From contig JBDRKO010000012.1 in the NCBI GenBank assembly GCA_043813915.1, positions 37,457 through 101,456 on the forward strand: a DNA stretch of 64,000 nucleotides, in the 5' to 3' direction. Each line of letters begins with the position of its first letter. Position 1 is the stretch's first letter. Shown here piece after piece: positions 35,971-64,000 of the stretch. The notes under the pieces were generated by a model, which was given only the letters and a program-made list of their open reading frames with translations, searched no databases and was not told the DNA's origin. This DNA is from Candidatus Omnitrophota bacterium. GTDB taxonomy: Bacteria; Omnitrophota; Gorgyraeia; Tantalellales; Tantalellaceae. The translations under genes were made by a program, and so were the position numbers.

Positions 35971-35997
35971 AATGAATGCTGAACGGTAAACTTGATC

Positions 35998-39128: not shown

Positions 39129-39401
39129 CGATTGTGGGAGAGTATAGTGTCAAAGTGTTAGAGAAAGAACTGACTCTGTGAATCTAATGAGCGGAGATAA
39201 GGGGTCTTCTTTGTAGCTAAGCGAATGATGACTCTATGACTCTAATAAAGGACAATAGTCAATCGTCAATAGTCAATGGTCTGTTAAGACGGTTCACAAA
39301 TCACGACTCACGAATTACGAATTACGATTAAGCATCAATCAATACAACGCTGTGACCTATGCGATCAAAAGGTCTATTGTCTATAAATTAAGGATATTAT
39401 C

Positions 39402-40679: not shown

Positions 40680-40896
40680 ATTTGTTCCTACGGGGACGTC
40701 CGATCTCCTCCGGCGGGAAATCGGACTCGGTAATTTTCGAACAATTTTTCATCCTTCCGGGATGAAAAAACCAAGCTTGTTCGAAAATTAACGCCCCGCA
40801 CGAAACAAATTGACCCGTCAACTATTCTCTTTCGGCGTGGAGGGGGCGAACGGCCTGCGGCCGTTCGGGAAAAGCGGAAGTGGCTGGGACAAAAAG

Positions 40897-40952
40897 GTTG
40901 GGAGAGAGAAAGTTATAGAGAGGATGTTGAAGACAGCCGGATAAATTTGTTC
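40897..40952 (+). repeat. Direct duplication, 56 nt at about 90% identity, of the last roughly 15 codons plus the stop and 3' flank of gltX (40632..40688).
   Basis: gttgggagagagaaagttatagagaggatgttgaagacagccggataaatttgttcc aligns with cttgggaaagagaaagttatagagaggatgttgaagacggccggataaatttgttcc. Confidence 0.85.
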
Positions 40953-41025
40953 CGGCCTATATCGTCGACCAACGGCACGAGTATTTCCAGCTCAAACAGT
41001 CCTCGCCCCTTAAATCCATCCGGGA

Positions 41026-41070
41026 TAGATCTTATCCCGGATAAGATCTATCCCGGATGGAAAAGCGGGA
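41026..41070. repeat. Perfect 45-nt palindrome: two 22-nt arms (CCATCCGGGATAGATCTTATCC) around a 1-nt centre.
   Basis: It is its own reverse complement except for the centre base. Confidence 0.85.
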
Positions 41071-41296
41071 AGATAGAGGTCAGATAAAAATGTAGGAGCG
41101 GTTCGTGAACCGCCCGAAAAAAGAAGGACGAAGCAATCTCTCTAAGGAGTTGTTGCCTGTAACCAGAAACCAGTAACCAGCAATAGAATGAGAGCACTGT
41201 TTCCTCTGGTAACTGGTAACCGGAAACTGGTTACTTTAAAGAAGCACTGTTCACTATTCACGAGTCACGAATTACGATTTACGAATCACGAAACTT

Positions 41297-42970: not shown

Positions 42971-43205
42971 AAGCCAGAAGACAGAAGTCAGAGGGCAGAA
43001 AGACGAAGGACGATAGAAGAAGTGTCAGAGTGTCCCCGTAACAGTCACTTCGTTCCGGTACAGGGCAGGCGCCGTGTCAAGGTGTCAGAGATGAACAAAG
43101 GATGAAGGACGGGGGACGCATCCTTTGCGTCATTGCGAGCGTAGCGAAGCAATCCATTCCGATCCCCGAGATCCTCTCAAATATTTAATTTCGAATCTCG
43201 ACTTC

Positions 43206-43350
43206 CGCCTGTACATCGATCATACAGTTTATCCTTTATTCTTCTCTTTTTCGTAACTAAACGCTTTAAATTGTTCACACAAATAATCCGGCCTTAGATG
43301 TCTGTATCTTTGGGTCATTGCTAAGTTTTTATGTCCTAAAACTGCCTGTC
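43206..43350 (-). pseudogene. Truncated remnant of a tyrosine integrase (the C-terminal roughly 50 codons only), paralogous to the intact integrase at 48174..49256.
   Basis: Nt 43206..43350 align to 48161..48300 (the integrase 3' end) at about 80% identity. No upstream integrase sequence is present. Confidence 0.6.
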
Positions 43351-43512
43351 GGGCATACCCTTTACACTTTTTCTACTTCTTTTCGGAGGGATTGCTAGTC
43401 TTTTCTAAGCTGTTTTTAAAATAATGTAGCATTTTTACATTTTCTCATACCACTTTATGTTGCATTTTAGCATTATTATTGACATAAGCTAAGTTTATGC
43501 TATACTTATCTT

Positions 43513-44835: not shown

Positions 44836-44906
44836 GATCATAAGATCCAAAAGGGCATATGTTTTAGCAAAAAGAAAAAACCCCCACGATTAGTGAGGGT
44901 TCATTC

Positions 44907-44923
44907 AGATTGGCTGGGATGCC
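44907..44923. repeat. Direct repeat of the tRNA-Gln 3' end (17 nt, TGGCTGGGATGCCTGG), a candidate att site.
   Basis: It is identical to 45103..45119 and 52314..52330. Confidence 0.7.
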
Positions 44924-45102
44924 TGGCCGATTCGGACTATGATGCTTCTGTTCGTCGCATCATTTACGCCCTTATCGGCATTTCCTTGCGCCTTTGGCGC
45001 TCGGTCAGACTCGGCGTTACATTAATTTCATATTATTTTCGCCATCGTCCACTTACACAGACCAATAAACAAAAAACCCCTCTAACGAGGGGCATTTTGT
45101 TT

Positions 45103-45121
45103 ATGGCTGGGATGCCTGGAC
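45103..45121. repeat. Direct repeat of the tRNA-Gln 3' end (19 nt), a candidate attR of the integrative element.
   Basis: TGGCTGGGATGCCTGGACT matches the tRNA-Gln 3' end at 52314..52332. Confidence 0.75.
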
Positions 45122-45216
45122 TATCAGCTAGGCTTTCCCAAGTCCTTTAGTCACTTGTGATTGTAAACTTTCTTTAAATTTTTGGACAGTTTTTGGTCAG
45201 TTTCTAGTGAAATAGA

Positions 45217-47994
45217 TTATGCCTGCTGCAAATATAGTTGTTCTAATTCGTGGAATTCCTGAGCTCCATCAACAGCTTTAAACGCAGGTGGAAGTGCGTA
45301 TGTATCTACATAATACAATTTAGCCTTTGAGCAACCGTTAACCATTAGTTCAAGCTCCTCAACCGAAAACTTACTCTTTCCTTCTATCAAATTTACGCCA
45401 TATCTCTCATAAATCTCCGTGAACTTATCCATTGTTTCGCCCCTAAGCTCTTCATATTCTTCCCATTCCCTGCTTTCCTTATCTTTTACCACTGATCCCT
45501 TTTTTTGTTTTTCCGGCACCTTATCCCACGCAACACGAAGAGCAGCCAAGGATGCGCCCATAACTGCCGCAGCAGTATAATTGGGAACTGCAACTCCCTG
45601 CTTTGTGCTAGCATCCTTAAGCGCGACAACATATTCTCTATCGTCAATAATCCTATCCTTCGTAATATCGTCCAGGTTTTCCAACCTTATGTCAATCAAC
45701 CCATCTCCGGCTTCCGCCCTTGTATGTAATTTAAAGACGCTTTCAATTTTATCGTTCGGGAATTCATCAATATTTCTTAGTTCATTTTTTACTAAGTCAA
45801 TAACCCTTGCGGCATCTTTACCTTTAAACCCATATCTCATATTTAATCCATAAGCATTATTTCGTGTGATTATAAGTGCTAACCTTTTTATGTTTTGTTC
45901 AAGCTGCTCCTGTTTTTCTGGAAGACTTGTTAGATCTATATACATATTTGTCGGCTGATTTTGAAGAATTCTAGATGTTCTTGTTAATAAATATCTTTCA
46001 TCGTTGTTTTCTGGTTTAATTATTGTTGATTTCATATAATCTGTTTGTTTTTCTATTTTCCTATCAACAATTTCCTTATATCTGTTAGCTAATACTTTCC
46101 ACGTTTTTTTAGATCTTTCATCAGTATATAAGGGTAAATACTTGGTCTCTCTAAAATCTGGTTCGCCAAAATATTTGTTTCTAATATTTTCTAATTCAAG
46201 CCCTAATTCCTTTACTCGCTGTGTCAGGTTTGGCACCTTTTGCCGAGCCATAATATTTTCTATATTTCCCCATATTCCTTCATCAGCATTTTCCCATCTT
46301 CGCTGGCTAACAATTTGGAGAATATTTCTGGTTTGATTGGCTAAAACAATGGTAGTTCTAATAGACTCTGTTTCTTCAGGCGTAATAAACGATTCCAAAC
46401 GAGATATAATTTCATCAAAATCTGGTCCAAAATTTATGCCAAACTTATTTGACAACCCAAAGATTAGATTTGAAATACCTCTAAACTGCAATTTTTTAAT
46501 ATTTTTAATATCAAGTGGTAATTGAGAGGGTTTTCCTTGCCATACCTGTAATTGCCTGCATAAATAGGGATGCACTTCTGCCCACATGCCGTCCAGATCT
46601 AAATGAGATTCAACATCTCGATTAAAAACTTCACTATATGAGCCTTCATTAATTTCAATTATTTGTCCCATTGCAAAATAATGATAAATGTCAAAATCTA
46701 TACGTCTATTTTCTATCTCATTTCCCATCAATAATGTAGACCACAAATCTCGTTTAAAACCAAGCGAAAATAATAATTCCGTAAGCATAAGATTTACTTT
46801 GTCTGGCTGTGGCCCCCAGTAATACAGGTCAACATCTGAAGAGAATGTTTTCATATCTCGGAAATAGATTACTGCAGAAGAATCAGAAGAAACTCCTAGT
46901 TCGTTCCAAACTACTGGCAACAATTGATTAATAACCTTTTCAACAAATGTATTGGACCCTAAAGCAACTTCTTTATATATTACATCAAAGGATTTTTCTG
47001 ATAATATCAATTTTTTTTGCTTGTTTCTCAATTCTTCATATTCTCTTTTTAATGTAGCCAAAATGTCCGTCTTGCCCTGTCGAGTTATTGTTGAATTTTG
47101 CTGTGTTGTAGTAATAGTACTATTAGTGTTCTCCATTCGTACAATATTTTTGTATGAGGATAAATCTTCCCCAAGTAATTCAACGGACATATAACCTAAA
47201 ATGTCTGAAATATGATAGCACGCTGTCCAAGGATTTGTTGGATCGATCCCTAAATTTAACAGAACATCAATTAATCTACATAAAGACTGCTTTTTAACCC
47301 CATTATTAAATAATTCCAAAATGGTAGACACTACTGCGTTATCTGGTGAATCGATAGCCTGTTGCCATAAATTGCGAATTAACAAACTCTCTTCATCCTG
47401 GGGAAACTTTGATATCTTTCCACTTATATGTTTAGTAATCCAGTTTTCATATTTTTTAGTTTTTGCTATTTTATTAATGCAAATTCTATCGTTTTCTTGA
47501 CAAACATTCCCCCAGTTTAATTGTTCCATTGGCAAATGCTCTCTTAACACAGCATCTTCAACACTTATGTCTCTTCCTGCTTGCTTTTTAGTATCCGTTC
47601 TTTCCTCTGTTTGCGTATCATTATATTCAATCTCAAAAATAATATTTTCCTTCCCAATTACGTAAAAATTTGCCCTTACAGAATTTTTATCTCTTTGAAC
47701 CTCTGAAAGAAATTCTATGTTGGCCTTCCCCTTTTCAATGCCTTGTTCATGATCTTCGATTAATATTCCGTTAACAGTTGAATGCGATTTCCCGGCCAGA
47801 AGAAGTCTTACGCCTGCAAGTATTTCAAATTGTGTTTGAAGGGACATTTCAATACCTGCATCTACCAAGGCACTGAACCCTGACTGAGGAGAAAGGGTGC
47901 TCCACATATCTCCATAGACTGGATTGGATGCAAAAATGGCTCCTGCTAACAGTATAGATATTAATTTCATATAGAATTTTCTCGTAATAAACAT
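45217..47994 (-). CDS. Hypothetical 925-aa protein with an N-terminal signal-peptide-like segment (MKLISILLAGAIFASNPVYG); the start may be at 47970.
   Basis: It is a long ORF with no recognisable family. It is terminated by the bidirectional hairpin CCCCTC-taac-GAGGGG at 45066..45095. Confidence 0.7.
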   Translation of the reverse strand: MFITRKFYMKLISILLAGAIFASNPVYGDMWSTLSPQSGFSALVDAGIEMSLQTQFEILAGVRLLLAGKSHSTVNGILIEDHEQGIEKGKANIEFLSEVQRDKNSVRANFYVIGKENIIFEIEYNDTQTEERTDTKKQAGRDISVEDAVLREHLPMEQLNWGNVCQENDRICINKIAKTKKYENWITKHISGKISKFPQDEESLLIRNLWQQAIDSPDNAVVSTILELFNNGVKKQSLCRLIDVLLNLGIDPTNPWTACYHISDILGYMSVELLGEDLSSYKNIVRMENTNSTITTTQQNSTITRQGKTDILATLKREYEELRNKQKKLILSEKSFDVIYKEVALGSNTFVEKVINQLLPVVWNELGVSSDSSAVIYFRDMKTFSSDVDLYYWGPQPDKVNLMLTELLFSLGFKRDLWSTLLMGNEIENRRIDFDIYHYFAMGQIIEINEGSYSEVFNRDVESHLDLDGMWAEVHPYLCRQLQVWQGKPSQLPLDIKNIKKLQFRGISNLIFGLSNKFGINFGPDFDEIISRLESFITPEETESIRTTIVLANQTRNILQIVSQRRWENADEGIWGNIENIMARQKVPNLTQRVKELGLELENIRNKYFGEPDFRETKYLPLYTDERSKKTWKVLANRYKEIVDRKIEKQTDYMKSTIIKPENNDERYLLTRTSRILQNQPTNMYIDLTSLPEKQEQLEQNIKRLALIITRNNAYGLNMRYGFKGKDAARVIDLVKNELRNIDEFPNDKIESVFKLHTRAEAGDGLIDIRLENLDDITKDRIIDDREYVVALKDASTKQGVAVPNYTAAAVMGASLAALRVAWDKVPEKQKKGSVVKDKESREWEEYEELRGETMDKFTEIYERYGVNLIEGKSKFSVEELELMVNGCSKAKLYYVDTYALPPAFKAVDGAQEFHELEQLYLQQA

Positions 47995-48173
47995 AGTTTT
48001 GACATTATACTACTTTTATCTTGTTAGTGCAATAGAAAGTATGTAGCTTTTTCCCTCTTAATTACAATTATCTCTATAGAAGGGAGCTGAGAGTCTTTGA
48101 ATCCCGGCGGAAAGCCCTAAACCCTTGTTAGCTAAAAGACTTAAGGCTTACGCCTGTACATCAATTGTACCGT

Positions 48174-49256
48174 TTATTCTTCTTTCTTCTCTTTTTCGTA
48201 GCTAAATGCCTTAAATCGTTCATGTAAATAATCCGGCCTTAGATGTCTATATCTGCGTGTCATTGATGCGCTCTTATGGCCCAAGACCTCCTGAATGGCT
48301 GTTTCTGGTATATCCCTCATATGAGCAATAGAGCAAAAAGTGTGTCTCAGTGAGTGCACATGAACCTCTTTGATCCTTGCCTCCTGACAGCATTCTTTTA
48401 CTTTTTCCAACACCCTACGATTATTAATTACATGTCCTTTCGTTGTCTGAAACAACAGTTCTCCCTCTGTCAGCATTTGGTCTTCTATAATATTTTTTAT
48501 TTCATCGGCAATAGGGGCATATCTGTTCTCTTTATTTTTCGGGTGCCACTCTTTGCCGTCTACTTCTTTCCCGCGGATATACAATAGCGATCTTGCTAAA
48601 TCTACATCATCCTTAGTTAAATGAAGCACTTCGTTGACTCTCATACCTGTAAATAGTATCGTTGCTACGATTTCAAAATAAGGCACTTTATAATCTTTTT
48701 CTTTCATCTTTTTCAGAAGCAGAATAGCTTCTTCTTCTGTTAGATTTTCGACATGTGGTGTTGCCACTTTCTTTGGGGATGTAGCTACTGTGGGATTATT
48801 ATTAGTCCACTTGCGCGCTATAGCATATCTGAACAGGTTAGAAATTACCATCCTCTCCATGTTCCAGGTTCTCCTGGCTATCCCTCTTTCTGTCCGGGAA
48901 TAAAGGTACTCTTCTATCATGCCTGTGTTAATGTCGCTAATATTGCTCACCTTTTTTATTTCAGCAAACTCCTGAAACATCTTTATTATGCCCTGGTACC
49001 TTCTCTTAGATTCTCTTGTAGTAAGATCTGTATCAAACTTACTTCGCAGATAGCTTCTAACTACCATCTTAAAATCCGCTCCCTGCACATATCCGTCTTT
49101 TCTTTTTTGCGCTCTCTGCAACTGATTATCTTTTGCCATACGCTCTGCTTCAGATTTATTGTATGATAAGAATTTCCATACAGCTTTACCAAATTCAGTA
49201 GGACGTATGTAATATCCCTTACATCCTGCCCTGGTAACAATCTTTAATTTCTTCAT
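48174..49256 (-). CDS. Tyrosine-type site-specific recombinase (integrase).
   Basis: Its C-terminal catalytic motifs are HSLRHTF and GH...MTRRYRHL with the catalytic Tyr. The N-terminus is a SAM-like domain. Confidence 0.9.
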   Translation of the reverse strand: MKKLKIVTRAGCKGYYIRPTEFGKAVWKFLSYNKSEAERMAKDNQLQRAQKRKDGYVQGADFKMVVRSYLRSKFDTDLTTRESKRRYQGIIKMFQEFAEIKKVSNISDINTGMIEEYLYSRTERGIARRTWNMERMVISNLFRYAIARKWTNNNPTVATSPKKVATPHVENLTEEEAILLLKKMKEKDYKVPYFEIVATILFTGMRVNEVLHLTKDDVDLARSLLYIRGKEVDGKEWHPKNKENRYAPIADEIKNIIEDQMLTEGELLFQTTKGHVINNRRVLEKVKECCQEARIKEVHVHSLRHTFCSIAHMRDIPETAIQEVLGHKSASMTRRYRHLRPDYLHERFKAFSYEKEKKEE

Positions 49257-49495
49257 ATTAAGCGCCTCCTGTTATTATCAACCTTAAAATCTTTCATCAC
49301 ATCTTCTGGGTCAAATCTTAATGCATTACCTATCTTGATGTATGAAATAAGATTTTGCGAGGTCATCCTGTAAAGTTTTGATAACTTGATCTGGTACATC
49401 TCACAGATTTCCTTTGCTGTAAGATACTGTTTACTTAAGTACTTATTACTCATTTTCTTAATATCCTTTTTTGTATCTATGTCTATTAGGCACAC
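49253..49495 (-). CDS. Helix-turn-helix excisionase/AlpA-like DNA-binding protein.
   Basis: It is 80 aa with the HTH YLTAKEICEMYQIKLSKLYRM. Its stop overlaps the integrase start. Confidence 0.6.
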   Translation of the reverse strand: MCLIDIDTKKDIKKMSNKYLSKQYLTAKEICEMYQIKLSKLYRMTSQNLISYIKIGNALRFDPEDVMKDFKVDNNRRRLI

Positions 49496-50558
49496 TTTAC
49501 CCTAGAGCTATAAGTCGCCCGAGAATTCATAAAATCCCCGTTGTGCCTAGTTTATAGACGCACGAATAGCCTCTATAGTTGCAAAACATAAGCAACTACA
49601 CTTAACTATTGTTAATGATTATGGTTAGATTTTTGTCTGGCAAAGAAAAGGTAGGATTCTCTGCATAAACAATAAAAATAGAGGTCTTATGTAAACGACC
49701 TCTTTCGGGTGTGTTTTTTCTTGATATAACTAAGTAACTTTCTTAGCTTCACTATTATTATATCACTGAAATACGGTTTTTTCAACCACCCCACAAAACC
49801 CCTACCCCGTGGGCGTTTGCTCTCCAAAAAAGCAACTACCAACATCTTTCCTGTCATGACCTTAACTTTCATGCGACCACTCTCCTTTCTTTTGTGAACG
49901 TTTAATTATGTTCACTAATTGTTGATTTTCTTATAGAAAGAAGAAGAACCGGTGCTAAAAGGCACATGGGGCACGAAACAGGAACAACTAGAATATGCTA
50001 ATCGTATATAGGACCTCAGGAATTTTCCAGGATATATTCTTTCTAATGGAGTTTAGTTTTTACTGTTTGATTTTATTTTCAGCCTTTTATAAATTCTCCG
50101 GTTTTGTCTGTTAGTATATAAGTGTAAGACAAGGAAAGAGTGGAGGACAGTGATCGGCAAGATCAAGATGGTAGTGACGACAGTCACCTCATCAACATGA
50201 GGCGTTCGCAAACAGTGATTTTACACTTATGATGTTACGGGATATTTTATCTATTTTTTATGATTAGCGAACGACCCACGCAGGAACAAATATGTAGGCC
50301 TATTTGAGCAAATGGTGAAATTAGGTATGGCTTCCATAATAAACTACAAGGCATCCATAGGAGAACATGAAAGAATATCTTATACCCGATAATAGGCCAT
50401 CTAAGAAGCTAAATAGGCTTCCAATGGCTTCTAAGAAAACATGTCATATTCGCATAAGGAATGTTGTTCTGCCGCCAAACTTTGGAAAGATAGCTATGGA
50501 TTTACACGCGCGGAGAATAAATCATCAGGTGATTGATGTGAAAGAGAAGACGGAACAC

Positions 50559-52046
50559 TTATTCGGAGCTAATTGATCCTATTATTCCAGATAAAAAAAT
50601 CTGATCTCGTGCTTTCTTTTTTAATTCATCGCTGGGGTTTGCGTAAACCTTTTTACATATGTCAAACAAAACTCTCGTATCGAGAAGACCTATGCTTGCT
50701 TCCCTTGCACCTTCCAGCGCAGCAGGATCTGAGTAAAAATTTCCTCTGTTATTTGGAGCTTTATCTCTCTGATAGTTTAGGATTAGAAGTCCTGGTGGTG
50801 ATACATTTTTGATAAGCTTACTATATCGAAGCATATGATTTTTGACTTGCTCCACATATTCGTTACATGGTCCCCGGGTAACACCTTTTGCCTCACATAA
50901 GATTTCTTTGCCGTCCGCCTTCAGTATAAAATCATTGATTAAAGCCTTATCTTCTTTCTCTAGCATCGCATCCATGTCAACAACTTCAAACCCTAACCAT
51001 TCTAGTGTCTTTTTTAATGGTGGTTTTAACTTTTCTTCCTCGTCAACCTTGTCATCATCTCCGTTAGTCAAAAGAGCTCTAAAATGTTTAGAGTTTTCTC
51101 TAGCACTACTGCGTTTAGATTCTAGGTCTTCTATTTTCCCATTAAAGGTTTCTCTTACTTCTTTTTTCTCATTGATAATTCGTATTTCGTCCGAAAATTT
51201 ATACGTCTCTGTATCAAGCCAAAGGCCTTCTTGATAATCCTTACTAAATAGAGCTTCGGGAGATAGCGCAGGTAGCTCTCTAAGAATATGTTTTATTATA
51301 TTTATGTTGACCGCTTTAAAGTCTGGGAAAAACCCAACATTCCCACCATTCGGTAAATGACAAAAATAACTATGTACTAAGGTATTTTCTCCCAGAGCAA
51401 AAAACTTATCGCCTTCACCTATGTGGTCTTTTACGCAATTAAAATGCATTCCCCTTAACAGGTCAACAGAATGCCCTAATGCACCTGTCATAAGCTGTTC
51501 TATATAATTTCCTACGGCTTCGACTTTTGGTTCTGTACGAAAGAATAGATCATACTCCTCGTCCGTATCCCCTTGCGTATAAGTTATCTTCCCTCCTTTG
51601 ATGTCTAGTAGTTTCTTTACCAACAAATCATCTTCTTCAATCCTTGTCTCGCCCATAAAAACTAACACTGTCCCATTTTTTTTCAAAACTTCTGTCCCCA
51701 AACTGTATAATCCTTCCAGGCCACAACATGAGTCACTGTTACGTTTTGGAAAGCCACATATTAAACCGTGAGACTTATAAGAATATTTCTTGTATTCACA
51801 AAATGAGTTTATGCGAACTGATTCTTCGGCATCAGATGGAACTGTTGGCATGTTGTAACAACTCCTATACGCAACAATATCCACCCGGTGTGGATCTGTC
51901 GGAATATTTAATAAATCTCCGTTTAGACCAGTAGCTCCTAAATGAACTTTGTAGCCATAGTCCCTTAAAGTTTGTGCCTCTGTCGGACTAAAATCGATTA
52001 GGAGTATTCTTGGACGTATAGTTTTTTCTATATTAAAAATCTTCAT
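50559..52046 (-). CDS. Hypothetical 495-aa protein. Its C-terminal region may carry a PD-(D/E)xK-like nuclease signature (D..EAK).
   Basis: It is a long ORF in the island. The C-terminus reads DFILKADGKEILCEAKG. No family is recognised. Confidence 0.65.
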   Translation of the reverse strand: MKIFNIEKTIRPRILLIDFSPTEAQTLRDYGYKVHLGATGLNGDLLNIPTDPHRVDIVAYRSCYNMPTVPSDAEESVRINSFCEYKKYSYKSHGLICGFPKRNSDSCCGLEGLYSLGTEVLKKNGTVLVFMGETRIEEDDLLVKKLLDIKGGKITYTQGDTDEEYDLFFRTEPKVEAVGNYIEQLMTGALGHSVDLLRGMHFNCVKDHIGEGDKFFALGENTLVHSYFCHLPNGGNVGFFPDFKAVNINIIKHILRELPALSPEALFSKDYQEGLWLDTETYKFSDEIRIINEKKEVRETFNGKIEDLESKRSSARENSKHFRALLTNGDDDKVDEEEKLKPPLKKTLEWLGFEVVDMDAMLEKEDKALINDFILKADGKEILCEAKGVTRGPCNEYVEQVKNHMLRYSKLIKNVSPPGLLILNYQRDKAPNNRGNFYSDPAALEGAREASIGLLDTRVLFDICKKVYANPSDELKKKARDQIFLSGIIGSISSE

Positions 52047-52313
52047 ATCTTAGATTATACAACTAACTCCCGATAGTCTCAAGCTACAAAAGAGTTATAC
52101 TCAAACTGGCTTCATTTGTCCAATCTATTTTCCTTATTTACCTGTACAACAATTGGACAGTTTTGGACAATTTGTACATGTTTTGTACAGTATTACCAGC
52201 AAATGGAAACAACTACCCACAACTAAAAGAAAAAGCCCAAACCCTTGATTTACAAAGATTTGAGCTCTTTCTTTTTTGTTTTTATGGGCTTCTGGAAATA
52301 CCCAAAAAGATCT

Positions 52314-52388
52314 TGGCTGGGATGCCTGGACTCGAACCAGAAACGGATGATCCAGAGTCATCTGTGTTACCAATTACACCACATCCCA
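52314..52388 (-). tRNA. tRNA-Gln (anticodon CTG).
   Basis: The reverse complement folds as TGGGATG/CATCCCA acceptor, D-arm GTGT..ACAC, anticodon stem GATGA-CTCTGGA-TCATC, and T-arm TCTGG-TTCGAGT-CCAGG, with discriminator G and CCA. Confidence 0.85.
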
Positions 52389-52395: not shown

Positions 52396-52647
52396 TTATT
52401 TAATTGATTCTCGCAGTATTTGTCTTAAACTGCTTCTTCCTTTCGTTGTCTTAAAATACCGTTCTCTTCTCAAGCTATCTTTTTTATCAAAAAATGCTTC
52501 ATAAAATACTAACTCCGGGTCTTTCATTCTGCTGCTTGTATGGCCTTCACCCTTCTTATGTTCCGTTATTCTTCTCTCTATGTTCCCGGTTGATCCTATG
52601 TAAAACTTTTCACTTTCCTTACTCCGCAGTACATACACATAATGCAT
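52396..52647 (-). CDS. Small stand-alone GIY-YIG nuclease-family protein.
   Basis: The N-terminus HYVYVLRSKESEKFYIGSTGNIERRITEH contains GIY..10..YIG and the conserved Arg. An AAGGA RBS precedes it. Confidence 0.8.
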   Translation of the reverse strand: MHYVYVLRSKESEKFYIGSTGNIERRITEHKKGEGHTSSRMKDPELVFYEAFFDKKDSLRRERYFKTTKGRSSLRQILRESIK

Positions 52648-52719: not shown

Positions 52720-52791
52720 GCAGAGTCATCTGTGTTACCAATTACACTTGCCGTATACCCCACGAGGTATGCGGCCACATCCCAGCGTGAG
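52720..52791 (-). pseudogene. Duplicated 5' half of tRNA-Gln (acceptor through anticodon stem), carrying a 28-nt hairpin insertion in the D-arm.
   Basis: Nt 52720..52750 and 52779..52791 match 52355..52394. The inserted ttgccgtataccccacgaggtatgcggc forms the hairpin CCGCATACC/GGTATACGG. Confidence 0.75.
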
Positions 52792-52906: not shown

Positions 52907-53080
52907 ATGACAAAAGAGCCTAAAAATTACGCTTATTGGAAAAGTATTCTAGATAACGAAGAAAAAGCGGCGGAATTTATAGTGAAAGGCAGCGAACGGC
53001 AAAAAAAAGAACTTAAAAAAGTGTTTAAATATATGGAGATGAAAAAGGAAAAGGAACAGGCCGATCTATTTCCGGGGTAG
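52907..53080 (+). CDS. Possible small protein of 57 aa (MTKEPKNYAYWKSILDNEEKAAEFIVKGSERQKKELKK...).
   Basis: It is an ORF below the ORF-track cutoff, preceded by GGAACGGGGGG and followed by a terminator at 53106. Confidence 0.3.
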   Translation: MTKEPKNYAYWKSILDNEEKAAEFIVKGSERQKKELKKVFKYMEMKKEKEQADLFPG

Positions 53081-53105
53081 GCCGTATCTAGATCAAAGCT
53101 AATGA

Positions 53106-53130
53106 ACCCTCACTAATCGTGGGGTTTTTT
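53106..53130 (+). terminator. Intrinsic terminator CCTCAC-taatc-GTGGGG plus T6. An inverted, near-identical copy lies at 44876..44906.
   Basis: The sequence is aatgaaccctcactaatcgtggggtttttt. The reverse complement of 44876..44906 is ctgaatgaaccctcactaatcgtgggggtttttt. Confidence 0.6.
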
Positions 53131-53156
53131 GTTTCGGTAAATTTGGGGCTAAATTC

Positions 53157-53211
53157 GGGACGTTTCCTAATTAATAAGAGATTAGAAAGCAAGCAAATAG
53201 GGAAACGTCCC
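53157..53211. repeat. Palindromic element of 55 nt: GGGACGTTTCC(C)TATT - a 24-nt loop (aataagagattagaaagcaagca) - AATAGGGAAACGTCCC. This is copy 1.
   Basis: It is near-identical to 58356..58410. Confidence 0.85.
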
Positions 53212-53301
53212 TGATTTATCCCTGATTTAAACGTCTCAAATTTAATTGCAGACGTGTTTACACAAATATAGTATTATAATCATATTAACCATGATCGAAT
53301 T

Positions 53302-54072
53302 ATGAAAAAAGGACTAAAAAAAATCTTCATGTTCTCTGTTTCGACCTGTCTTTTGATCGCGTATCAAGCGGAGGCAGGAGAGGTCGGCAAGAGAGATTTT
53401 ACCGAAAAAATAGAGATCCCCGCCAATGCGTCAGGCGATAGCAAGTTTGAGGCCTACCTTACACATAAACGAGCCTATAAACTTCTTAAAGAATACCAAG
53501 CTAGTGGAGACCTAGATAAGCTCTATATAGCCTTGAATCTTGCCGGTGAAGCACTCGTCTTAGATCCTGGAGAATCCCGTTACTGGGTGACTTTAGGTGA
53601 TATTCATTCTGAAATGACTAAATTCAATATATTCCGTGCGGGCGAGTGGGCTGAGCAAGCATACCAGGAAGCCCTTGTCTTAAATCCTGAAGATACAACT
53701 ACTATGGTGCTATTAGGGATCAGTCTTGCAAAAAGCGGTGACTATAAAGAGGCCCTGCAGTATTTAGAACCGGCGCTTACCGATGATACCTATTTGATGA
53801 CATATGCTATCGGGCAGTGGTTGAATCTATGTTATCTTGCCGGCAGCCAGACTAAACGCGGCACTATATATTATGAGGAGTTTTTAAATGTCAACCCGGA
53901 GTTTTATTATTTAAGGTTATATAAAGCTTTTCTTTATAAAGCGCATTTTGATTATGTGAATGTCGAAAAAGAATTAAAGATCATTTTGGCCGATAAAGAA
54001 GCAGACTCTAAAACCAAAGAGTTTGCCTCTAATCTCCTGAAAGACCTCAAGACAGAGGAGGCCAAAGGGTAA
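53302..54072 (+). CDS. Secreted TPR-repeat protein.
   Basis: It has a signal peptide MKKGLKKIFMFSVSTCLLIAYQA and TPR-like helices (AYQEALVLNPED...GDYKEALQYLEPAL). Confidence 0.7.
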   Translation: MKKGLKKIFMFSVSTCLLIAYQAEAGEVGKRDFTEKIEIPANASGDSKFEAYLTHKRAYKLLKEYQASGDLDKLYIALNLAGEALVLDPGESRYWVTLGDIHSEMTKFNIFRAGEWAEQAYQEALVLNPEDTTTMVLLGISLAKSGDYKEALQYLEPALTDDTYLMTYAIGQWLNLCYLAGSQTKRGTIYYEEFLNVNPEFYYLRLYKAFLYKAHFDYVNVEKELKIILADKEADSKTKEFASNLLKDLKTEEAKG

Positions 54073-56957
54073 TGAAGAAAACCACGCTTTTTCTTATTTC
54101 TGTATTTCTTCTGAGTATCGCAACTTCTGCTTTTGGAGCAATATCCACCGACGATCTGGCTAAAAGAAAGGCTGAAGGAGACAGCATCTTTACCCAAATG
54201 ACTAAAGAGCGAAATAAAGCGGTAGAGTCAATTATGAACGACCCCAACACCTCTGCGATGCAAAAAAAGCAAGCTGTTAGGAGATTACAGGAAGACTTTT
54301 TGCGATCAAGCAGAGAGGTGCATTTAAAGTATCGTGAACCGTTCGTGCAAAGGATCATTGCCGAAACAAATGCTGAATTACCCAAAGACCAACAAATAAA
54401 AAGAAGCCTGGGCAGCGATATTTATAAAAGGGATGAGGTAACGGGTAAAGTTTTAAAGGATGAGTATGGACGCAAGATACTAAACCCTACGCACCGCGGG
54501 ATGCAGGGTGATCTTGATCTAGGGGGTAGCCCGAGCGCCGTGGAAAAGCTGGAGAAGAAATTCGGTGATTACGGGATAGGCAAAAAAGTTGACCCAAAGA
54601 TCCCCGTTAGCCACAAAGATTATAATAAGGTAAAAGACGCACCGGGATACCGAGATTTTAAACAGGCGGAAGTTACGATCAATATCGAAGGCCATGTGGA
54701 TAAGCCCGGAAGCTCTTCTCACTTAACACAGGTTCAGATGGATGCCTTTTCAAAGGAGACTTATGTCTCAGTAGGAATGAATAAGGATCAGCCCGGGCGC
54801 AAATTTGTCGAGGTCAATGACCATATAAAAAAAGGCACTACGGGTTTTGCGGGCCCTGCATCAGTGTTGCTTGATCCAAGATCAGAGGATGTTTTTCAAG
54901 GTGTCGGTAAAGCGACTCTAAAATCTATCGATCCTCCAAAGAAACCCGGCCAGGTTCAACACGTAAGCGATGAGCAGCTCAATAAGATCTTAAAAGAAAC
55001 AGGTTATCAAGGAGACGTGAATACGTTTAAATCTCAGGTTGCTGATATAAAGCAGGGTCACTTGCCTCAAGGCGTGGGGCTTGACGAGAAAAACATAAAA
55101 CCTTTCCAAGAAGCCTGTCAAAAGACAACCGAGCAAGCGTTGGACAATGCCAAGAAAATAGCGGATCAGGAATTTCAGAAAACAAATGAAAGGATAAAGA
55201 AGTACGATGAAGTAGCAAAGTCTCCGGATACTCCTGAATATCAAAAAAAGAGGTTTGAGAAAGAAGCCCAAAAACTCCGTGACGAATTAGCTGATTCAAA
55301 GGTAAGAATAGAACAGACTACCTTAGCTAATCAGGAAAAGTTAAAAGGGGGGAATTACGATACCTTTTACGAAAAAAAAGCGATAAAACCCAAAGCTCTG
55401 CCGGATATCCCGAAAACACCAAATGCGCCGAAATCACCCAGAATAGATGCCATAAAAAACGGACTTAAACCAGACCTTATGAGTACAGCCGGTTACGGGC
55501 TTTCTGCCTATAATGTTTATGATAATGTGCAAAAATATCAAAACGGAGAAATAACTAAGAACGACATGGTCATCGGTGTTAACAAGGAAGTTGTTGATAC
55601 CGGCTTTGGAATTGTGACGGATCTTGGGACTGCTGCGGCTGTCGGAGGTATAGGAACGGGTGCGACAGGAGCAGTTGCCACTGTAGCCGCGCCATTGGTT
55701 GTTTTCGCGGCAACCGGATACGCGGTGAGCCAGGCGGCCGAAGACGGTTTGAAAATGGCGGACGCTTTTAAAGACGAAGAAATTTTGGAAATGATAAGCA
55801 AGTCAAAGACCGAAGAAGCGATCAATACCATGCAAATGGCGGCTGAGGAAGTATTAAAGGCCGGGGAGGTAACCGGTGACTGGAAATTTTTCGCTAAGGC
55901 TGATGATGTTATTTATGCTATGGATAAATTGTATCAGGCAACGGGTGATGTTTTTTATTTACAGAGATCTAATGATCTAGCTGACCGTGTGGATAAGAAG
56001 AAAGAAGAGCTGGAGAAACAGTATGGTTGCTCGATCTATGATGTTAAGAATAAGAAGAAGGAGGAAGCGGAAAAGGAAGCTGAAAAAGAAAAGGTTCCGG
56101 AGACCAAAACCGCTGAAGAGGTTAAAGAAGCCGAGAGGGAGCCGGAAATAGTATTCGAGGAACCAGGGCCGGATGAGAATGAAGAGGAAGACGAATACGA
56201 GATTGTTTTTGAAGATGTTGATGAGGAGACCAAAACGCAGGCGAAGGAGTTTATAGAATATCAAAAGAATAAAGACGCAGAGCAAGACAAAAAAGATATG
56301 TATTACGAGATGCAAGACGCAAAGACGTCTTCTGATACGCAACGTGCTTATGATGAAGCTGCTGAAGAAGCCAGGGAAGAGAATTATTATGCTTTGGTAG
56401 GAGTATCCCAAAAGTGGCAGGATTATAAGCAACAACAGCAACAGCAGGATAAACAATACAAAAAAGAATTGGCGGCGATAAAAAAGCAATACAATGACAC
56501 GCAGAATAATACACAGGCAAAAGATCCTATCCCGGGATCTTTGGGATGGATCAACGCCAAGCCTTCTCAGGCTTCGCAACCCGCAACAAGCTATCAAGAC
56601 GGTACGGCCAGTGATCATAAAACGTATAAGCAGGAGGAGCAAAAGCGGTGTTCTTGTAAAGGGTGGTATTATTTTTGTGTCAGACCGGCTGATGGAGCCG
56701 GAGGATGGACCGGTTTTGAGGGGCTTGATAAAAGCGCAACTTGTGGGATCATGCACTTGCACAAAGTGCCTTTACAGATCCCCGGAGCAGGTACATTATA
56801 TTTTGAGGAACGGCAGGCAAATCAGGCCGGAAAATGTTTAGATAAAGGACACAAATTTCATATCGGCAAGAAGTCGCCCCAGCAGATAGATGATGCGGTA
56901 AAAAAGAGTGATGCTTTTTACGGCAAATCTTACGAGTTCGATAAAATAGATAGATAA
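54072..56957 (+). CDS. Large secreted protein of 961 aa and unknown function. It has a signal peptide, K/E-rich coiled regions, a Gly/Ala-rich zipper-like hydrophobic segment, acidic low-complexity stretches, and a Cys-rich C-terminal domain.
   Basis: The leader MKKTTLFLISVFLLSIATSAFG, the segment GTAAAVGGIGTGATGAVATVAAPLVVFAATGYA, and the C-terminus CSCKGWYYFCV..CG..H are all visible. It is translationally coupled to the upstream gene (TAATGA). Confidence 0.7.
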   Translation: MKKTTLFLISVFLLSIATSAFGAISTDDLAKRKAEGDSIFTQMTKERNKAVESIMNDPNTSAMQKKQAVRRLQEDFLRSSREVHLKYREPFVQRIIAETNAELPKDQQIKRSLGSDIYKRDEVTGKVLKDEYGRKILNPTHRGMQGDLDLGGSPSAVEKLEKKFGDYGIGKKVDPKIPVSHKDYNKVKDAPGYRDFKQAEVTINIEGHVDKPGSSSHLTQVQMDAFSKETYVSVGMNKDQPGRKFVEVNDHIKKGTTGFAGPASVLLDPRSEDVFQGVGKATLKSIDPPKKPGQVQHVSDEQLNKILKETGYQGDVNTFKSQVADIKQGHLPQGVGLDEKNIKPFQEACQKTTEQALDNAKKIADQEFQKTNERIKKYDEVAKSPDTPEYQKKRFEKEAQKLRDELADSKVRIEQTTLANQEKLKGGNYDTFYEKKAIKPKALPDIPKTPNAPKSPRIDAIKNGLKPDLMSTAGYGLSAYNVYDNVQKYQNGEITKNDMVIGVNKEVVDTGFGIVTDLGTAAAVGGIGTGATGAVATVAAPLVVFAATGYAVSQAAEDGLKMADAFKDEEILEMISKSKTEEAINTMQMAAEEVLKAGEVTGDWKFFAKADDVIYAMDKLYQATGDVFYLQRSNDLADRVDKKKEELEKQYGCSIYDVKNKKKEEAEKEAEKEKVPETKTAEEVKEAEREPEIVFEEPGPDENEEEDEYEIVFEDVDEETKTQAKEFIEYQKNKDAEQDKKDMYYEMQDAKTSSDTQRAYDEAAEEAREENYYALVGVSQKWQDYKQQQQQQDKQYKKELAAIKKQYNDTQNNTQAKDPIPGSLGWINAKPSQASQPATSYQDGTASDHKTYKQEEQKRCSCKGWYYFCVRPADGAGGWTGFEGLDKSATCGIMHLHKVPLQIPGAGTLYFEERQANQAGKCLDKGHKFHIGKKSPQQIDDAVKKSDAFYGKSYEFDKIDR

Positions 56958-56963
56958 AGGAAA

Positions 56964-57674
56964 ATGAAGATGAGGTGTAAGACAATAAAATCCACGGTAT
57001 TTTGTATTGTTGCATGTTATTTTTTTTCAGGTGTATCTATAGCTTGGGATATTTCTGAGTTTCCTCATGCCCCCAAAAAGAAACAAAGAGCCTCCTTAAG
57101 ATATCAGCCCAGATCAGAGCTTATGCAAAAGAAATACCCTTTAACCGTAGGGGTGATGGATGTCAGCGATAAAAGGGCAACATCTTTTTTTCTTGCTAAA
57201 GAGGGCGCTACCGACGAATTCTTTCAGGAGACAATAGCCGATGGAATTTCAGAAGCTTTTTACCTTGAGATGAAAAAAAGCGGTCTTTTTGAGAAAGTTG
57301 TAAAGATCGATGAAACCAGGCCCGAGGAATTAACCGCGGGATCTTTATCCGGGTTAAGAGAACAATACAATGTAGATATGCTCGTTGTCGCTGATCTTAG
57401 CAAGTTTAATATGGTAAGGGAAAAAATGGGCGGGTTGCAGTATAATTCATACATTACAAGAGTAGACATTGAGCTTATAGCTCAGCTCATTTATCTTAAA
57501 GCAGGTGTAGTTGTATGGGCAGATGTTGTTGATCGTATCAGCGAGAAGCATTCAGAAACAGGCGCTCTGAGGCCGGGAGAGGTCGGTGAACTTACCACAT
57601 CCACAATGGGTGATCTTTTTAGTGATATGAAAGTATTAATTGCAGAAACCGGTAAAGTGATGAAGGTGAAATGA
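56964..57674 (+). CDS. Putative lipoprotein or secreted protein of 236 aa, possibly with a CsgG/LpoB-like fold (weak).
   Basis: It has a signal peptide with a CIVAC-type lipobox. The pattern TVGVMDVSD...LVVADL resembles CsgG-like lipoproteins. Confidence 0.6.
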   Translation: MKMRCKTIKSTVFCIVACYFFSGVSIAWDISEFPHAPKKKQRASLRYQPRSELMQKKYPLTVGVMDVSDKRATSFFLAKEGATDEFFQETIADGISEAFYLEMKKSGLFEKVVKIDETRPEELTAGSLSGLREQYNVDMLVVADLSKFNMVREKMGGLQYNSYITRVDIELIAQLIYLKAGVVVWADVVDRISEKHSETGALRPGEVGELTTSTMGDLFSDMKVLIAETGKVMKVK

Positions 57675-58318
57675 ATTTAAAGAAAGCGGCACTTTTGATC
57701 TTAGTAAGCATATGTATCACTGCTAATGCTTATGCAGGCGCGCCGCCCATAACTAAAGAGATGGATGCGGCCAGTTTGGAGCTTCCTTTTTATGAGGCTG
57801 AGGACCTGCCCGGAGCAGTTAGTAAGGAGGATATTTCTTTAGCTGCATCAGTTAGCAGCGGGGACGATCTCGAAAGATACTTTGCCTATGATCTTACTAA
57901 ATATGGGTATGTCGCGGTTTTAGTTACCATAACGAACAATTCTGATAAGCCAATATTGATCCACGGCACAGACACTTCTGTTGAGTATAGAGGCAATATC
58001 ATCAGACCTCTTTCGGTTGATAAAGTTTCCTCAAAGGTGATTGCCAATGTAAAAAAGCTGTTCAACAATACCGGCTATGGCCTTTATGAGGTATGGAATA
58101 TGTTCTTTGTAAGACTTGATGCGGTGGGAGAAAATTTCAATAAGAAATCTTTGCGGCATATGGTGCTTCCCGCGGGTGATACTGTGAGGGGGTATGTGTT
58201 TTTCGGTAAAAGTGAGCTTAATAGATCAAATCCAGGCATGAATCTCCGTGTAAACTTCCGCAGAATTGATAAAATAGAGAGCTTTGGACTGATAGCCGAG
58301 ATCGAACCTGATAAATAA
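57671..58318 (+). CDS. Secreted protein of 215 aa and unknown function.
   Basis: It has a signal peptide MNLKKAALLILVSICITANAYA. It overlaps the upstream gene by ATGA. Confidence 0.65.
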   Translation: MNLKKAALLILVSICITANAYAGAPPITKEMDAASLELPFYEAEDLPGAVSKEDISLAASVSSGDDLERYFAYDLTKYGYVAVLVTITNNSDKPILIHGTDTSVEYRGNIIRPLSVDKVSSKVIANVKKLFNNTGYGLYEVWNMFFVRLDAVGENFNKKSLRHMVLPAGDTVRGYVFFGKSELNRSNPGMNLRVNFRRIDKIESFGLIAEIEPDK

Positions 58319-58355
58319 TTGCGGCCAGTTCAAAAAATCCAGCCTGTATAAATTA

Positions 58356-58410
58356 GGGACGTTTCCCTATTAATAAGAGATTAGAAAGCAAGCAAATAGG
58401 GAAACGTCCC
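58356..58410. repeat. Palindromic 55-nt element, copy 2, matching 53157..53211.
   Basis: The sequence is gggacgtttccctattaataagagattagaaagcaagcaaatagggaaacgtccc. Confidence 0.85.
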
Positions 58411-58543
58411 GCGTTATGTCCCGAACAAAAATTTGACGTTTAGAACAGAGCGAATTTCCTTTGAATTCTTCTTGAACTGTTCTAAAATAGTGTTCAAGTA
58501 AATAATATTATAGAGATGATCTGGCAAAAAAAGGGAGGGTAAT

Positions 58544-59089
58544 ATGAGAAAAGTTTTTATGGTGATGCTTTTAACGGCAGCGGTAATATTCGCGTCTGCG
58601 GCAGCAAACGCTTTTGCCGATTCGGCAAAAGTCCTGGATATTAAAGTAGACGATACTTTAAAACTCTTTAAGGCGGTCAAAGGTTCGGATGATCTTATAA
58701 AGAGCGCTAAAGGACTGTTGGTATTCCCAAGTGTTATGAAAGCCGGGATAGGGTTGGGCGGAGAATACGGAGAAGGCTCTCTCCTGGTAAACGGGAGTAC
58801 GCAAGGATATTACAATACGGCTTCCGCTTCAATAGGGTTTCAGCTAGGAGTGCAGAAAAAATCCATAATCATCGCGTTCATGCAGCAGGACGCGCTTGAT
58901 AAGTTCCTGGGCAGCGACGGATGGAAAATAGGGGCTGACGCGTCGGTAGCCGTTATCGCCGTGGGCGCCGAAGGGGCGCTGGACACGCAGAGCACCAACC
59001 AGCCGGTTGTAGCGTTCGTTTTCGACCAGAAAGGGCTCATGTATAACCTTACTCTGGAAGGGACGAAGATAAGTAAGATCAGTAAATAG
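58544..59089 (+). CDS. Secreted SYLF (DUF500/Ysc84-like) lipid-binding domain protein.
   Basis: It has a signal peptide and the Gly-rich pattern AGIGLGGEYGEGSLLVNGS...ASIGFQLG. An AGGGAGGG RBS precedes it. Confidence 0.6.
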   Translation: MRKVFMVMLLTAAVIFASAAANAFADSAKVLDIKVDDTLKLFKAVKGSDDLIKSAKGLLVFPSVMKAGIGLGGEYGEGSLLVNGSTQGYYNTASASIGFQLGVQKKSIIIAFMQQDALDKFLGSDGWKIGADASVAVIAVGAEGALDTQSTNQPVVAFVFDQKGLMYNLTLEGTKISKISK

Positions 59090-63422: not shown

Positions 63423-63665
63423 GCTCTAATAACACCTATAAAGTTCCGCGGACGTAAGTCCGGGACTGTGCTCTATGCTCTGTGCGCAGCCCGAAGAGAC
63501 ACTTGACTATTGACGATTGACCATTGTCCTTTATAAGATCGCGCGATCCGTAGGTTCGCGGCATGACGCGTAATGTTTTATGTGTGATGAGAGAAGAGAC
63601 GAAGAACGATAGAAGAAGTGTTAAGTTGTAAGTATTAAGTGAGAATGGGTTTAAAAGTTAAAAAG

Positions 63666-63821
63666 CTGTCATTCCGAGTGAATGACCGTAGGGAATGAGT
63701 CGAGGAATCTTGATGAACGAACATGGAATCGGGAGATTCCGATACACCTCGGACATTACCTGCCTGCCGGCAGGCAGGCGTCCTCGGCGCCTCGGCTTGT
63801 TACACTCGCTCGGGATGACAA
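63666..63821. mobile_element. MITE-like element, the second copy, in the same orientation as 31929..32054. Its TIRs are TGTCATTCCGAG / CTCGGGATGACA.
   Basis: It shares ggaatcgggagattccgat, CCTGCCTGCCGGCAGGCAGG and the right TIR with the first copy. It also contains an inverted GGCGCCGAGGAC module. Confidence 0.5.
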
Positions 63822-64000
63822 CGTTTGGGTATAGTTACAATATGCGGTTTAATATTTCATCTGACTTCTGATTTCTGACATCTGACTTCTTTACCCCGGG
63901 CACGAGTCACGAATTAAGAAAAGAAGCCGTGGTTTTTAACCCGGATACAATTGCGGATAGCTAGCAGAATAGGAATAATAAACATACTTTTACGCGGACA

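Follow-up and report, generated by a model that had tools for sequence, protein, structure and literature searches.

The stretch analysed here, called the window below, is a 64-kb segment of a contig from a Candidatus Omnitrophota bacterium, and it is 100% identical to contigs of uncultured Omnitrophota in assembly GCA_018817765.1 (prefix KKG84) and in a second assembly (prefix ABIG55). Past an integrated tRNA-Gln island, the window carries an operon of four genes for exported proteins that lies between two copies of a palindromic repeat, each of which can fold into a hairpin. The order of features beyond the island is a GIY-YIG gene, a small open reading frame (ORF) of 57 amino acids (aa) with its terminator, hairpin 1, the operon, hairpin 2, a SYLF gene, a PALP gene and a PAS histidine kinase gene (Table 1). 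A first-pass annotation had described the hairpins as an identical 55-nt bracket around secreted cargo, and had considered them as operator sites, insulating terminators or the ends of a mobile cassette.

The four genes of the operon are co-directional and tightly coupled: genes 1 and 2 overlap by 1 nt (TAATG), a gap of 6 nt separates genes 2 and 3, and genes 3 and 4 overlap by 4 nt (ATGA). Each of the four predicted products opens with basic residues and then a hydrophobic segment, an arrangement typical of Sec leaders. The gene layout and the leaders had been annotated correctly. The designation of accessory lipoproteins was not borne out, because a lipobox-like sequence (IVAC) is present in only one of the four, protein 3. 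Two candidate promoters of the sigma-70 type precede gene 1, and the region holds no more of these sites than expected from shuffled sequence.

Table 1. Features in and around the bracketed operon, in window coordinates
Feature	Position	Strand	Remarks
57-aa ORF	52907..53134	+	Conserved, left anchor of the site; 66% aa identity to a 63-aa ORF of Aadella
Intrinsic terminator	53108-53124		Canonical, with T-run, after the 57-aa ORF; 25 nt ahead of copy 1
Palindromic repeat, copy 1	53150..53217	.	Core hairpin 53157-53211; TAAATTC left flank, degenerate right flank; stem with 2 mismatches
Degenerate tandem echoes of the right-arm end	53212..53245	.	ATCCCTGATTT, AAACGTCTCAAATTT; read directly from the sequence
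Alternative promoter candidate	53244-53272	+	TTGCAG-17-TAGTAT, by eye; weak consensus match only
Candidate sigma-70-type promoter of the operon	53257..53286	+	TTTACA-18-CATATT; weak consensus match only
Gene 1	53302..54072	+	256-aa tetratricopeptide repeat (TPR) protein with putative Sec-type leader; constant partner of gene 2 at all loci examined
Gene 2	54072..56957	+	961-aa predicted secreted protein; no Pfam family
Gene 3	56964..57674	+	236-aa protein with putative leader and possible lipobox (IVAC)
Gene 4	57671..58318	+	215-aa protein with putative leader; weak, sub-threshold resemblance to DUF4352
Palindromic repeat, copy 2	58349..58416	.	Core hairpin 58356-58410; perfect 16-bp stem, 23-nt loop
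SYLF/BPSL1445-family lipoprotein gene	58544..59089	+	Right anchor, followed by the PALP (TrpB-like) gene; syntenic with Aadella

The two hairpins do flank the operon as first described, but they are not identical. Their 55-nt sequences agree at 53 positions and differ at 2, with a left arm that reads GGGACGTTTCCTAATT in copy 1 and GGGACGTTTCCCTATT in copy 2. The stem of copy 1 is imperfect and contains one G-T pair and one A-A mismatch. The repeat extends 7 nt leftward of the hairpin (TAAATTc/a), which gives a common unit of 62 nt at 95% identity, and the two copies are spaced 5199 nt apart from start to start. The arms begin with GGGACG, so that the ends of the element take the form GGGACGT.../...ACGTCCC, and the right flanks in the window are TGATT and GCGTT. 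The echoes that follow copy 1 resemble a triplicated ACGTCCCGAATT adjoining another copy of the element, in metagenome contig L128. Copy 2 starts 37 nt past the last stop codon of the operon and ends 133 nt ahead of the SYLF start codon; overall, the copies sit 90-133 nt upstream of the start codons of the operon and of the SYLF gene.

A chance origin of the repeat pair is excluded. The 16-mer arm occurs five times at up to 3 mismatches (0.66 expected), and the 23-nt hairpin interior has two exact occurrences where none is expected. RNA folding of the two regions gives -31.7 and -27.9 kcal/mol, with z scores of -4.3 and -5.1 against shuffled sequences. Hairpins of the GGGAC type number only two in the 64-kb window, and both of them flank the operon. 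There is no T-run after either window hairpin, on either strand: directly after the complete hairpins come TGATTTAT and GCGTTATG, and the only terminator listed there is a mini-stem, AGGGACGTTTCCCT, on the minus strand. Rfam, searched at gathering and E-value thresholds, returned only spurious matches of microRNA precursors on the hairpin. No mention of palindromic or hairpin intergenic repeats was found in the Omnitrophota literature that was searched, and a literature search with the 11-mer arm GGGACGTTTCC returned only unrelated primer sequences.

The operon also exists in relatives that lack the hairpins. All four genes are present at 87-88% nucleotide identity at two further loci, L119 and L130, and many samples yielded the L130 version. 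Similarity to the window starts at position 53284, 18 nt before the first ATG, and stops at 58309, 9 nt before the last stop codon, and both limits fall inside the hairpin bracket. The neighbours of the operon at these loci are unrelated to those in the window and to each other: GH130 and GT4 genes lie upstream in L130 and genes for a PKD protein and MamF downstream, and L119 has a serine recombinase fragment downstream of the operon. No GGGACG hairpin lies near either operon, and the two contigs hold 0 and 1 GGGACG hexamers. In L130 the operon is situated between two copies (92% identity; 3502-3606 and 8656-8760) of a different, 105-nt module that carries a consensus promoter (TTGATA-17-TATAAT), and L119 keeps this module downstream only (5300-5404). 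Many short-read contigs break right beside the 105-nt module.

The first two genes have a wider distribution than the operon as a whole. Each of the seven contexts seen has the TPR gene coupled to the large gene, and genes 3 and 4 occur only in the window organism and its two close relatives, with different exported proteins downstream at the other loci. In L121, a contig of a metagenome-assembled genome (MAG) from another phylum, direct repeats of 310 nt (96%; 4984-5292 and 16923-17232) and 66 nt (94%; 4705-4770 and 18642-18707) enclose a region of about 12 kb that holds a homologous TPR and large-protein pair. The pair, TPR protein plus large exported protein, is rare and unannotated, and it moves among genomic sites in Omnitrophota and Syntrophales-like MAGs. 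An exported protein whose mature form starts V(M/L)PP.(H/Y)Y...A..S.IKA was also observed near the pair at L121 (13252-14355), L125 (12434-13606) and L127 (3895-4353), and may be a recurrent partner, one that the window does not have.

The converse, a hairpin with no operon, is seen as well. Candidatus Aadella gelida (L140) was the sole syntenic relative found; its SYLF and PALP proteins are 77% and 89% identical to those of the window. The order in Aadella is a 63-aa ORF, a GGDEF gene on the opposite strand, the hairpin, SYLF, PALP and the PAS histidine kinase, and the four-gene operon is absent. The Aadella hairpin and SYLF promoter region are collinear with window positions 58349-58543, which identifies copy 2 as a resident, inherited element. 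The arms of this orthologous hairpin have diverged (GGGGACGGTGCTTAATT ... AATTAGGCAGCGCCCC), but it still folds as a 24-bp stem. When five copies of the element are compared, 93.6% of the cells pair and 5 pairs are changed on both sides; at only five copies, this is suggestive of palindromy that has been kept by double changes. A second Aadella hairpin of the GGGACG type (L140 7877-7917) consists of AATTAGGGACGTC-N15-GACGTCCCTAATT followed by TTTTATTTT, and is a canonical terminator with a T-run; it overlaps the stop codon of the 63-aa ORF and forms a convergent terminator with the GGDEF gene. The 19.9 kb of Aadella sequence therefore hold one clean GGGAC-type hairpin and one degenerate ortholog, both of them flanking the GGDEF gene. 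No hairpin was found upstream of SYLF in three more distant Omnitrophota (P0038, P0035 and P0042), which do not share the synteny either.

Contigs from metagenomes of the Joint Genome Institute (JGI) contain only two further copies with exact arms, L128 and L129, both from metagenome Ga0180007 and on separate contigs. The L128 copy follows a thiG/thiH/thiF-like thiamine-biosynthesis cluster, and the L129 copy follows miaA, a FIST gene and a coiled-coil gene. In both, the arms are the same as in the window, and the interiors match it at 19 and 17 of 23 positions, respectively. The two are identical to each other at 52 of 55 positions, which mirrors the 53 of 55 of the window pair. The consensus of the repeat is about 67 nt long and reads (T/A)AATTN-GGGACGTTTCCCTATT-23 nt-AATAGGGAAACGTCCC-NAATT. 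AATT is found on both sides of the element in L128, L129 and Aadella, and because AATT is itself palindromic, a target duplication is here indistinguishable from an extension of the palindrome. Within the left arm, copy 1 and Aadella have TAATT where copy 2, L128 and L129 have CTATT.

The operon is thus found without the hairpin, the hairpin without the operon, and further copies of the hairpin at unrelated loci. The repeat is a feature of the chromosomal site and a member of a dispersed family, and is not part of the operon. We consider it probable, with moderate confidence, that the hairpins are copies of a small dispersed palindromic intergenic repeat, similar to repetitive extragenic palindromic (REP) sequences or miniature inverted-repeat transposable elements (MITEs), which lies beside an accessory operon in a plastic zone of the chromosome. 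The features that point to this are the sharp boundaries of the element, its near-identity within a genome and divergence between genomes, and the AATT on both sides of several copies. That the bracket arose as a side effect, as repeats spread and genes were shuffled, is more likely than that it marks a new system of regulation or mobility, and as it stands it is not evidence for such a system.

Under this reading, copy 2 would be the resident element upstream of SYLF, inherited from a common ancestor with Ca. Aadella gelida. The accessory operon would have landed in the plastic zone beside the tRNA-Gln island, and copy 1 would be a recent duplicate or a homogenised copy on the other side of its 5.1 kb, with the element spreading or being homogenised in the manner of a REP or MITE. 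The operon itself would be a shuffled accessory module, in which a core of a periplasmic TPR protein and a large Sec-exported protein is followed by two lineage-specific small exported proteins. REP-type palindromes can stabilise upstream mRNA and can act as recombination substrates. When transcribed with the operon, copy 2 would fold into a stem-loop of 16 bp, 37 nt past the stop codon, and might protect or end the mRNA, as the analogy to REP and the related Aadella hairpin with its T-run suggest. According to a preprint (10.64898/2026.06.07.730766), loci that are hypervariable or carry mobile cargo are common in Omnitrophota, with a median of 7 per genome and with cell-surface cassettes among them.

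Several observations weigh against a dispersed repeat that brackets the operon by accident. GGGAC-type hairpins are rare, the only two of the window and the two exact-arm copies in the JGI contigs being those found, and at this rarity a random placement in two adjacent intergenic regions is not likely a priori. Aadella has other cargo, the GGDEF gene, between two GGGACG-type hairpins at the same locus. Other direct repeats bracket the operon elsewhere, 105 nt at 92% in L130 and, around a wider region, 310 nt at 96% in L121, which hints at a recombination process over coincidence. In addition, no transposase or REP-associated tyrosine transposase (RAYT) is linked to the element at the 118 related loci described below, the window copies have no U-tract, and the copy count of the element in this organism covers the 64-kb window only.

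The comparison with established repeat families is similarly mixed. Like REP sequences, bacterial interspersed mosaic elements (BIMEs) and REP doublets forming hairpins (REPINs) of Enterobacteria and Pseudomonas, which are short, imperfect intergenic palindromes dispersed mostly at gene 3' ends and near-identical within a genome, both window copies are intergenic, with 16-bp arms, as expected of short extragenic palindromes. Unlike them, the window element has no GTAG-type 5' tetranucleotide, its arms starting with GGGACG instead, and no RAYT link was found at the 118 related loci. Its loop is long (23 nt), asymmetric and conserved, its outer stem GGGACGTTTCC is common to palindromes in many phyla, and its copy number is apparently low, with 2 copies in 64 kb and 2 on separate contigs of metagenome Ga0180007. 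MITEs such as the Correia elements of Neisseria and the RUP elements of pneumococci resemble it in their terminal inverted repeats and in their insertion beside genes, where they sometimes supply terminators or promoters. A short target duplication may be a further resemblance, the candidate being the AATT of L128, L129 and Aadella. However, the window element measures only about 67 nt and has degenerate flanks in the window. No parent insertion sequence (IS) with matching ends was seen in the window or the fetched loci, and no search of an IS library was made.

The alternative that survives best is that the hairpin is an att-like recombination site marking a cassette slot, so that integration duplicates the hairpin and the cargo could loop out again. 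Such an exchange would proceed through a site-specific recombinase, or through Campbell-type homologous recombination with a circle that carries one copy of the repeat. It is consistent with a sharp-edged direct repeat that flanks a unit of exactly 5199 nt, with the presence of rare GGGAC-type hairpins around variable cargo at one and the same locus, the operon in the window and the GGDEF gene in Aadella, with the 105-nt direct repeat around the same operon in L130, and with the many assemblies that break beside these repeats. The TAATT of copy 1, which equals the Aadella arm, and the CTATT shared by copy 2, L128 and L129 are what a crossover inside the repeat would give, but this match concerns two bases only. 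There is no recombinase within the bracket, and the only integrase nearby is that of the tRNA-Gln island, whose att repeat is a separate one of 19 nt. Since L119 and L130 carry the operon without the hairpin, the hairpin cannot be the attP of the operon. None of the SYLF-bearing Omnitrophota examined shows an empty site with just one hairpin, and Aadella holds another gene there; L128 and L129 are single copies with no partner within 3-9 kb. This explanation is somewhat unlikely.

The same evidence bears on the proposal that the hairpins are the ends of a mobile cassette, which is not supported: the operon is hairpin-free in L119 and L130, the Aadella hairpin is operon-free, and other copies lie beside unrelated genes. 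The synteny comparison that the first-pass annotation called for thus gave the operon without the hairpin on one side, and the flanks and hairpin without the operon on the other. Of the two refuting observations that this annotation named, relatives that carry the operon without the 55-mer were seen; copies of the repeat seen at unrelated sites number two (L128 and L129), against the dozens that it named. Integron attC sites with their gene cassettes and the pdif modules of Acinetobacter plasmids resemble this locus in that cargo is delimited by short palindromic sites and that the same slot holds different cargo in related genomes (the operon in the window, GGDEF in Aadella). However, the window hairpins have no RYYYAAC/GTTRRRY core and no extrahelical bases, copy 2 being a perfect stem, and the locus has no IntI, no cassette array and no 11-6-11 dif architecture. 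The cargo, moreover, is four genes with their own promoter region, and the same operon occurs elsewhere without the sites. Unlike the attL and attR of integrative elements, the direct repeats do not travel with the operon (L119 and L130) and enclose no recombinase.

It has also to be considered that the hairpins are selected RNA or DNA structures, such as bidirectional terminators, insulators or mRNA 3' stabilisers, whose presence is independent of mobility. The stems have a very high stability, each copy occupies the gap that separates the end of a transcription unit from the following promoter, and the double changes at the orthologous site would keep the palindromy. The left hairpin of Aadella (AATTAGGGACGTC-N15-GACGTCCCTAATT then TTTTATTTT) is a canonical terminator, and the copies of the outer stem that lie outside long ORFs in the cross-phylum set described below are mostly downstream of genes, with a modal distance of 11 nt from the stop codon. 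A G+C-rich stem just past a stop codon, together with the T-run of the related Aadella hairpin, is indeed what intrinsic terminators have in common with these elements. Terminators differ from them in that the window copies have no U-tract on either strand and an unusually long loop of 23 nt. The small upstream ORF already has a canonical terminator of its own 25 nt before copy 1, the orthologous Aadella hairpin lies between divergent genes where there is nothing to terminate, and the loop sequence is kept, which is not required of a pure terminator. Selection for structure is an unlikely account of the pair.

The outer stem of the hairpin has a distribution well beyond Omnitrophota. A scan for GGGACGTTTCC-N20-50-GGAAACGTCCC with one genome per species gave at least 118 loci (L001-L118) in at least 55 genomes. 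Most of the motif-bearing genomes among the matches listed are gut or rumen Clostridia; the other groups listed are Actinomycetota, Planctomycetota, Acidobacteriota, Myxococcota, Desulfobacterota-like bacteria, Gammaproteobacteria, Aminicenantes and Omnitrophota, about 10 phyla or classes in all. The loci are long nested palindromes, often in several copies per genome (e.g., L002 7634-7678, L014 4829-4872 and L026 3747-3801), and the counts are raw, including the natural background of hairpins. Conservation reaches past the 11-mer selected for the scan, the stem recurring as G-GGGACGTTTCC-(C/T)TTT with a T-rich stretch after the arm; among the matches listed, 44 of 55 genomes, and 16 of the 20 outside Clostridia, have a G at position -1, as counted by eye. 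ORF calls of 120 aa or more contain 44 of the 120 motif copies listed. For copies outside such calls the counts are 37 between tandem, 12 between convergent and 3 between divergent genes, and most of these copies come just after stop codons.

A common outer stem in so many genomes and phyla would reflect recognition by one protein if palindromes of the GGGACGTTTCC type were the recombination sites of an undescribed, widespread system that defines exchangeable cassette slots and is recognised by one conserved protein. This is distinctly unlikely. No recurrent neighbouring gene family or transposase lies beside the 118 related hairpins listed, and neither an Rfam family nor a paper was found for the GGGACGTTTCC outer stem. 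Viral contigs gave 0 matches for the motif, and likewise 0 for two permuted controls.

Finally, it is highly improbable that the hairpins are operators of a dimeric regulator, with 16-bp half-sites 23 bp apart that co-regulate the operon and SYLF. A start codon does follow each copy after 90-133 nt, Aadella retains a copy ahead of SYLF, and a conserved, basic 57-aa protein is encoded just upstream of copy 1, but the arms differ at the orthologous site (GGGACGTTTCCCTATT in the window and GGGGACGGTGCTTAATT in Aadella) where only the palindromy is kept, copy 1 has two uncompensated mismatches, the same operon lies behind unrelated upstream DNA in relatives, the upstream regions of three other Omnitrophota SYLF genes lack such a hairpin, other hairpin copies follow unrelated genes, and no adjacent regulator gene or DNA-binding domain was detected in the neighbouring genes.

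With the repeat set apart from the operon as a dispersed element of the site, the encoded proteins can be considered in their own right. The gene 2 family is small: a full HMMER scan of 1.84 billion representatives at 50% identity found 133 proteins, and at the 90% level there are 25 clusters, which come from Omnitrophota and Syntrophales-labelled MAGs and all bear the name 'hypothetical'. Alignment of the family reveals conservation of the signal peptide and of the residues up to about 660, and beyond 660 the C-terminal parts are mutually unrelated. The conserved part features the invariant motifs HRG..GD.D, PG...H.T, D..S.ETY.S and D..KK, and contains a Gly/Ala-rich hydrophobic segment at residues 527-553. 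After residue 660 or so, an acidic coiled-coil region leads into a Cys-containing C-terminal part that is common to the closest relatives only. In remote members the N-terminal domain is joined to arrays of CarboxypepD_reg, PKD or SpaA beta-sandwiches, repeats of the adhesin type that give an architecture typical of cell-surface proteins.

Structure prediction, one of the checks proposed with the first annotation, was informative for gene 2 only in part. The AlphaFold2 (AF2) model of its product has a predicted local distance difference test (pLDDT) score of 62.8 and is confident at residues 30-435, but Foldseek against the PDB and BFVD gave no match below E = 0.06, and a PDB profile search gave low-complexity matches only. 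Protein 3 has just 2 homologous clusters, and its AF2 model (pLDDT 38) is unusable. The matches of gene 1 in NCBIfam are PilW (5.6e-9) and LcrH/SycD (1.7e-4), both far below the family cut-offs. As with PilW/PilF-type TPR lipoproteins and the SycD/LcrH chaperone-translocator arrangement, a small TPR gene lies directly upstream of, and is coupled to, the gene of a large protein with a hydrophobic Gly/Ala-rich segment. Unlike SycD/LcrH, both window proteins have apparent Sec leaders, which would place the TPR protein in the periplasm and not in the cytoplasm as a chaperone. No secretion-system genes lie near the window operon, in further contrast to these TPR-partner systems.

The suggestion of a secreted toxin or pore found no support. 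Searches of Pfam, NCBIfam, PADLOC, PHROGs, PDB sequences and Foldseek returned no toxin, pore or defence homology for the four proteins; the sole PHROG match is a family of unknown function on the TPR protein, which fits its TPR repeats, and no PADLOC defence family was matched. The layout does recall polymorphic toxins, with a conserved N-terminal part, a variable C-terminal part and downstream genes that vary except in close relatives, but the same library and structure searches recognised no toxin, trafficking or secretion domain and no immunity family in the four genes. A role at the envelope or cell surface is most likely, and is the best inference from the available comparisons.

The surroundings of the operon are plastic, and its position beside an integrative tRNA-Gln island, as first annotated, was confirmed. 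The island occupies 45123-52313, about 7.2 kb, and contains genes for a tyrosine integrase (48174-49256), an excisionase-like protein (49253-49495) and two large proteins without an assigned function (925 aa and 495 aa). It is bounded by a 19-nt direct repeat of the tRNA-Gln 3' end (45104-45122 and 52314-52332). GC content is low in the island (33-39%), compared with 41-44% in the operon and 46-52% in the backbone. A third, 17-nt copy of the tRNA-Gln 3' end at 44910-44926 suggests an older insertion. An exact 27-nt internal piece of tRNA-Gln is duplicated at 52353-52379 and 52721-52747 on either side of the 83-aa GIY-YIG gene (52396-52647), which looks like an insertion that brought or copied part of the tRNA gene. 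The terminator after the 57-aa ORF (CCCTCACTAATCGTGGGG plus T-run; 53101-53130) has a 97% inverted copy at 44876-44905, outside the other end of the island, and copies of this terminator also lie beside AAA_14/DUF4143 genes in Aadella (L140 1785-1808 and 3415-3441). These copies, beside the island and in Aadella, indicate another small dispersed element.

Repeats are frequent elsewhere in the window. Repeats of at least 25 nt are common to 13 of its 28 intergenic regions, and 4 adjacent pairs bracket genes. The long intergenic regions at 31781-43512 and 63423-64000 are composed of purine-rich and hairpin-forming modules common to many intergenic regions, one example of which is an exact 60-nt repeat at 38138-38197 and 42975-43034. 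One such module recurs in contig L128 (7126-7256). The genes for tRNA-Cys and tRNA-Val (16593-17495) lie within a 286-nt repeat family of three copies at 71-95% identity. Very long proteins have been reported for Omnitrophota, and a giant ORF of at least 4047 aa at 2-12145, which runs off the start of the window, fits this pattern.

What appeared to be a single system thus splits into two ordinary but undescribed components: a palindromic intergenic repeat family, and a TPR protein with its large exported partner. In Omnitrophota, nanobacteria that are uncultured and may depend on hosts, variable surface modules are plausible determinants of contact with hosts or particles. If the hairpins were true recombination sites, they would provide a handle on how such surface modules are exchanged.

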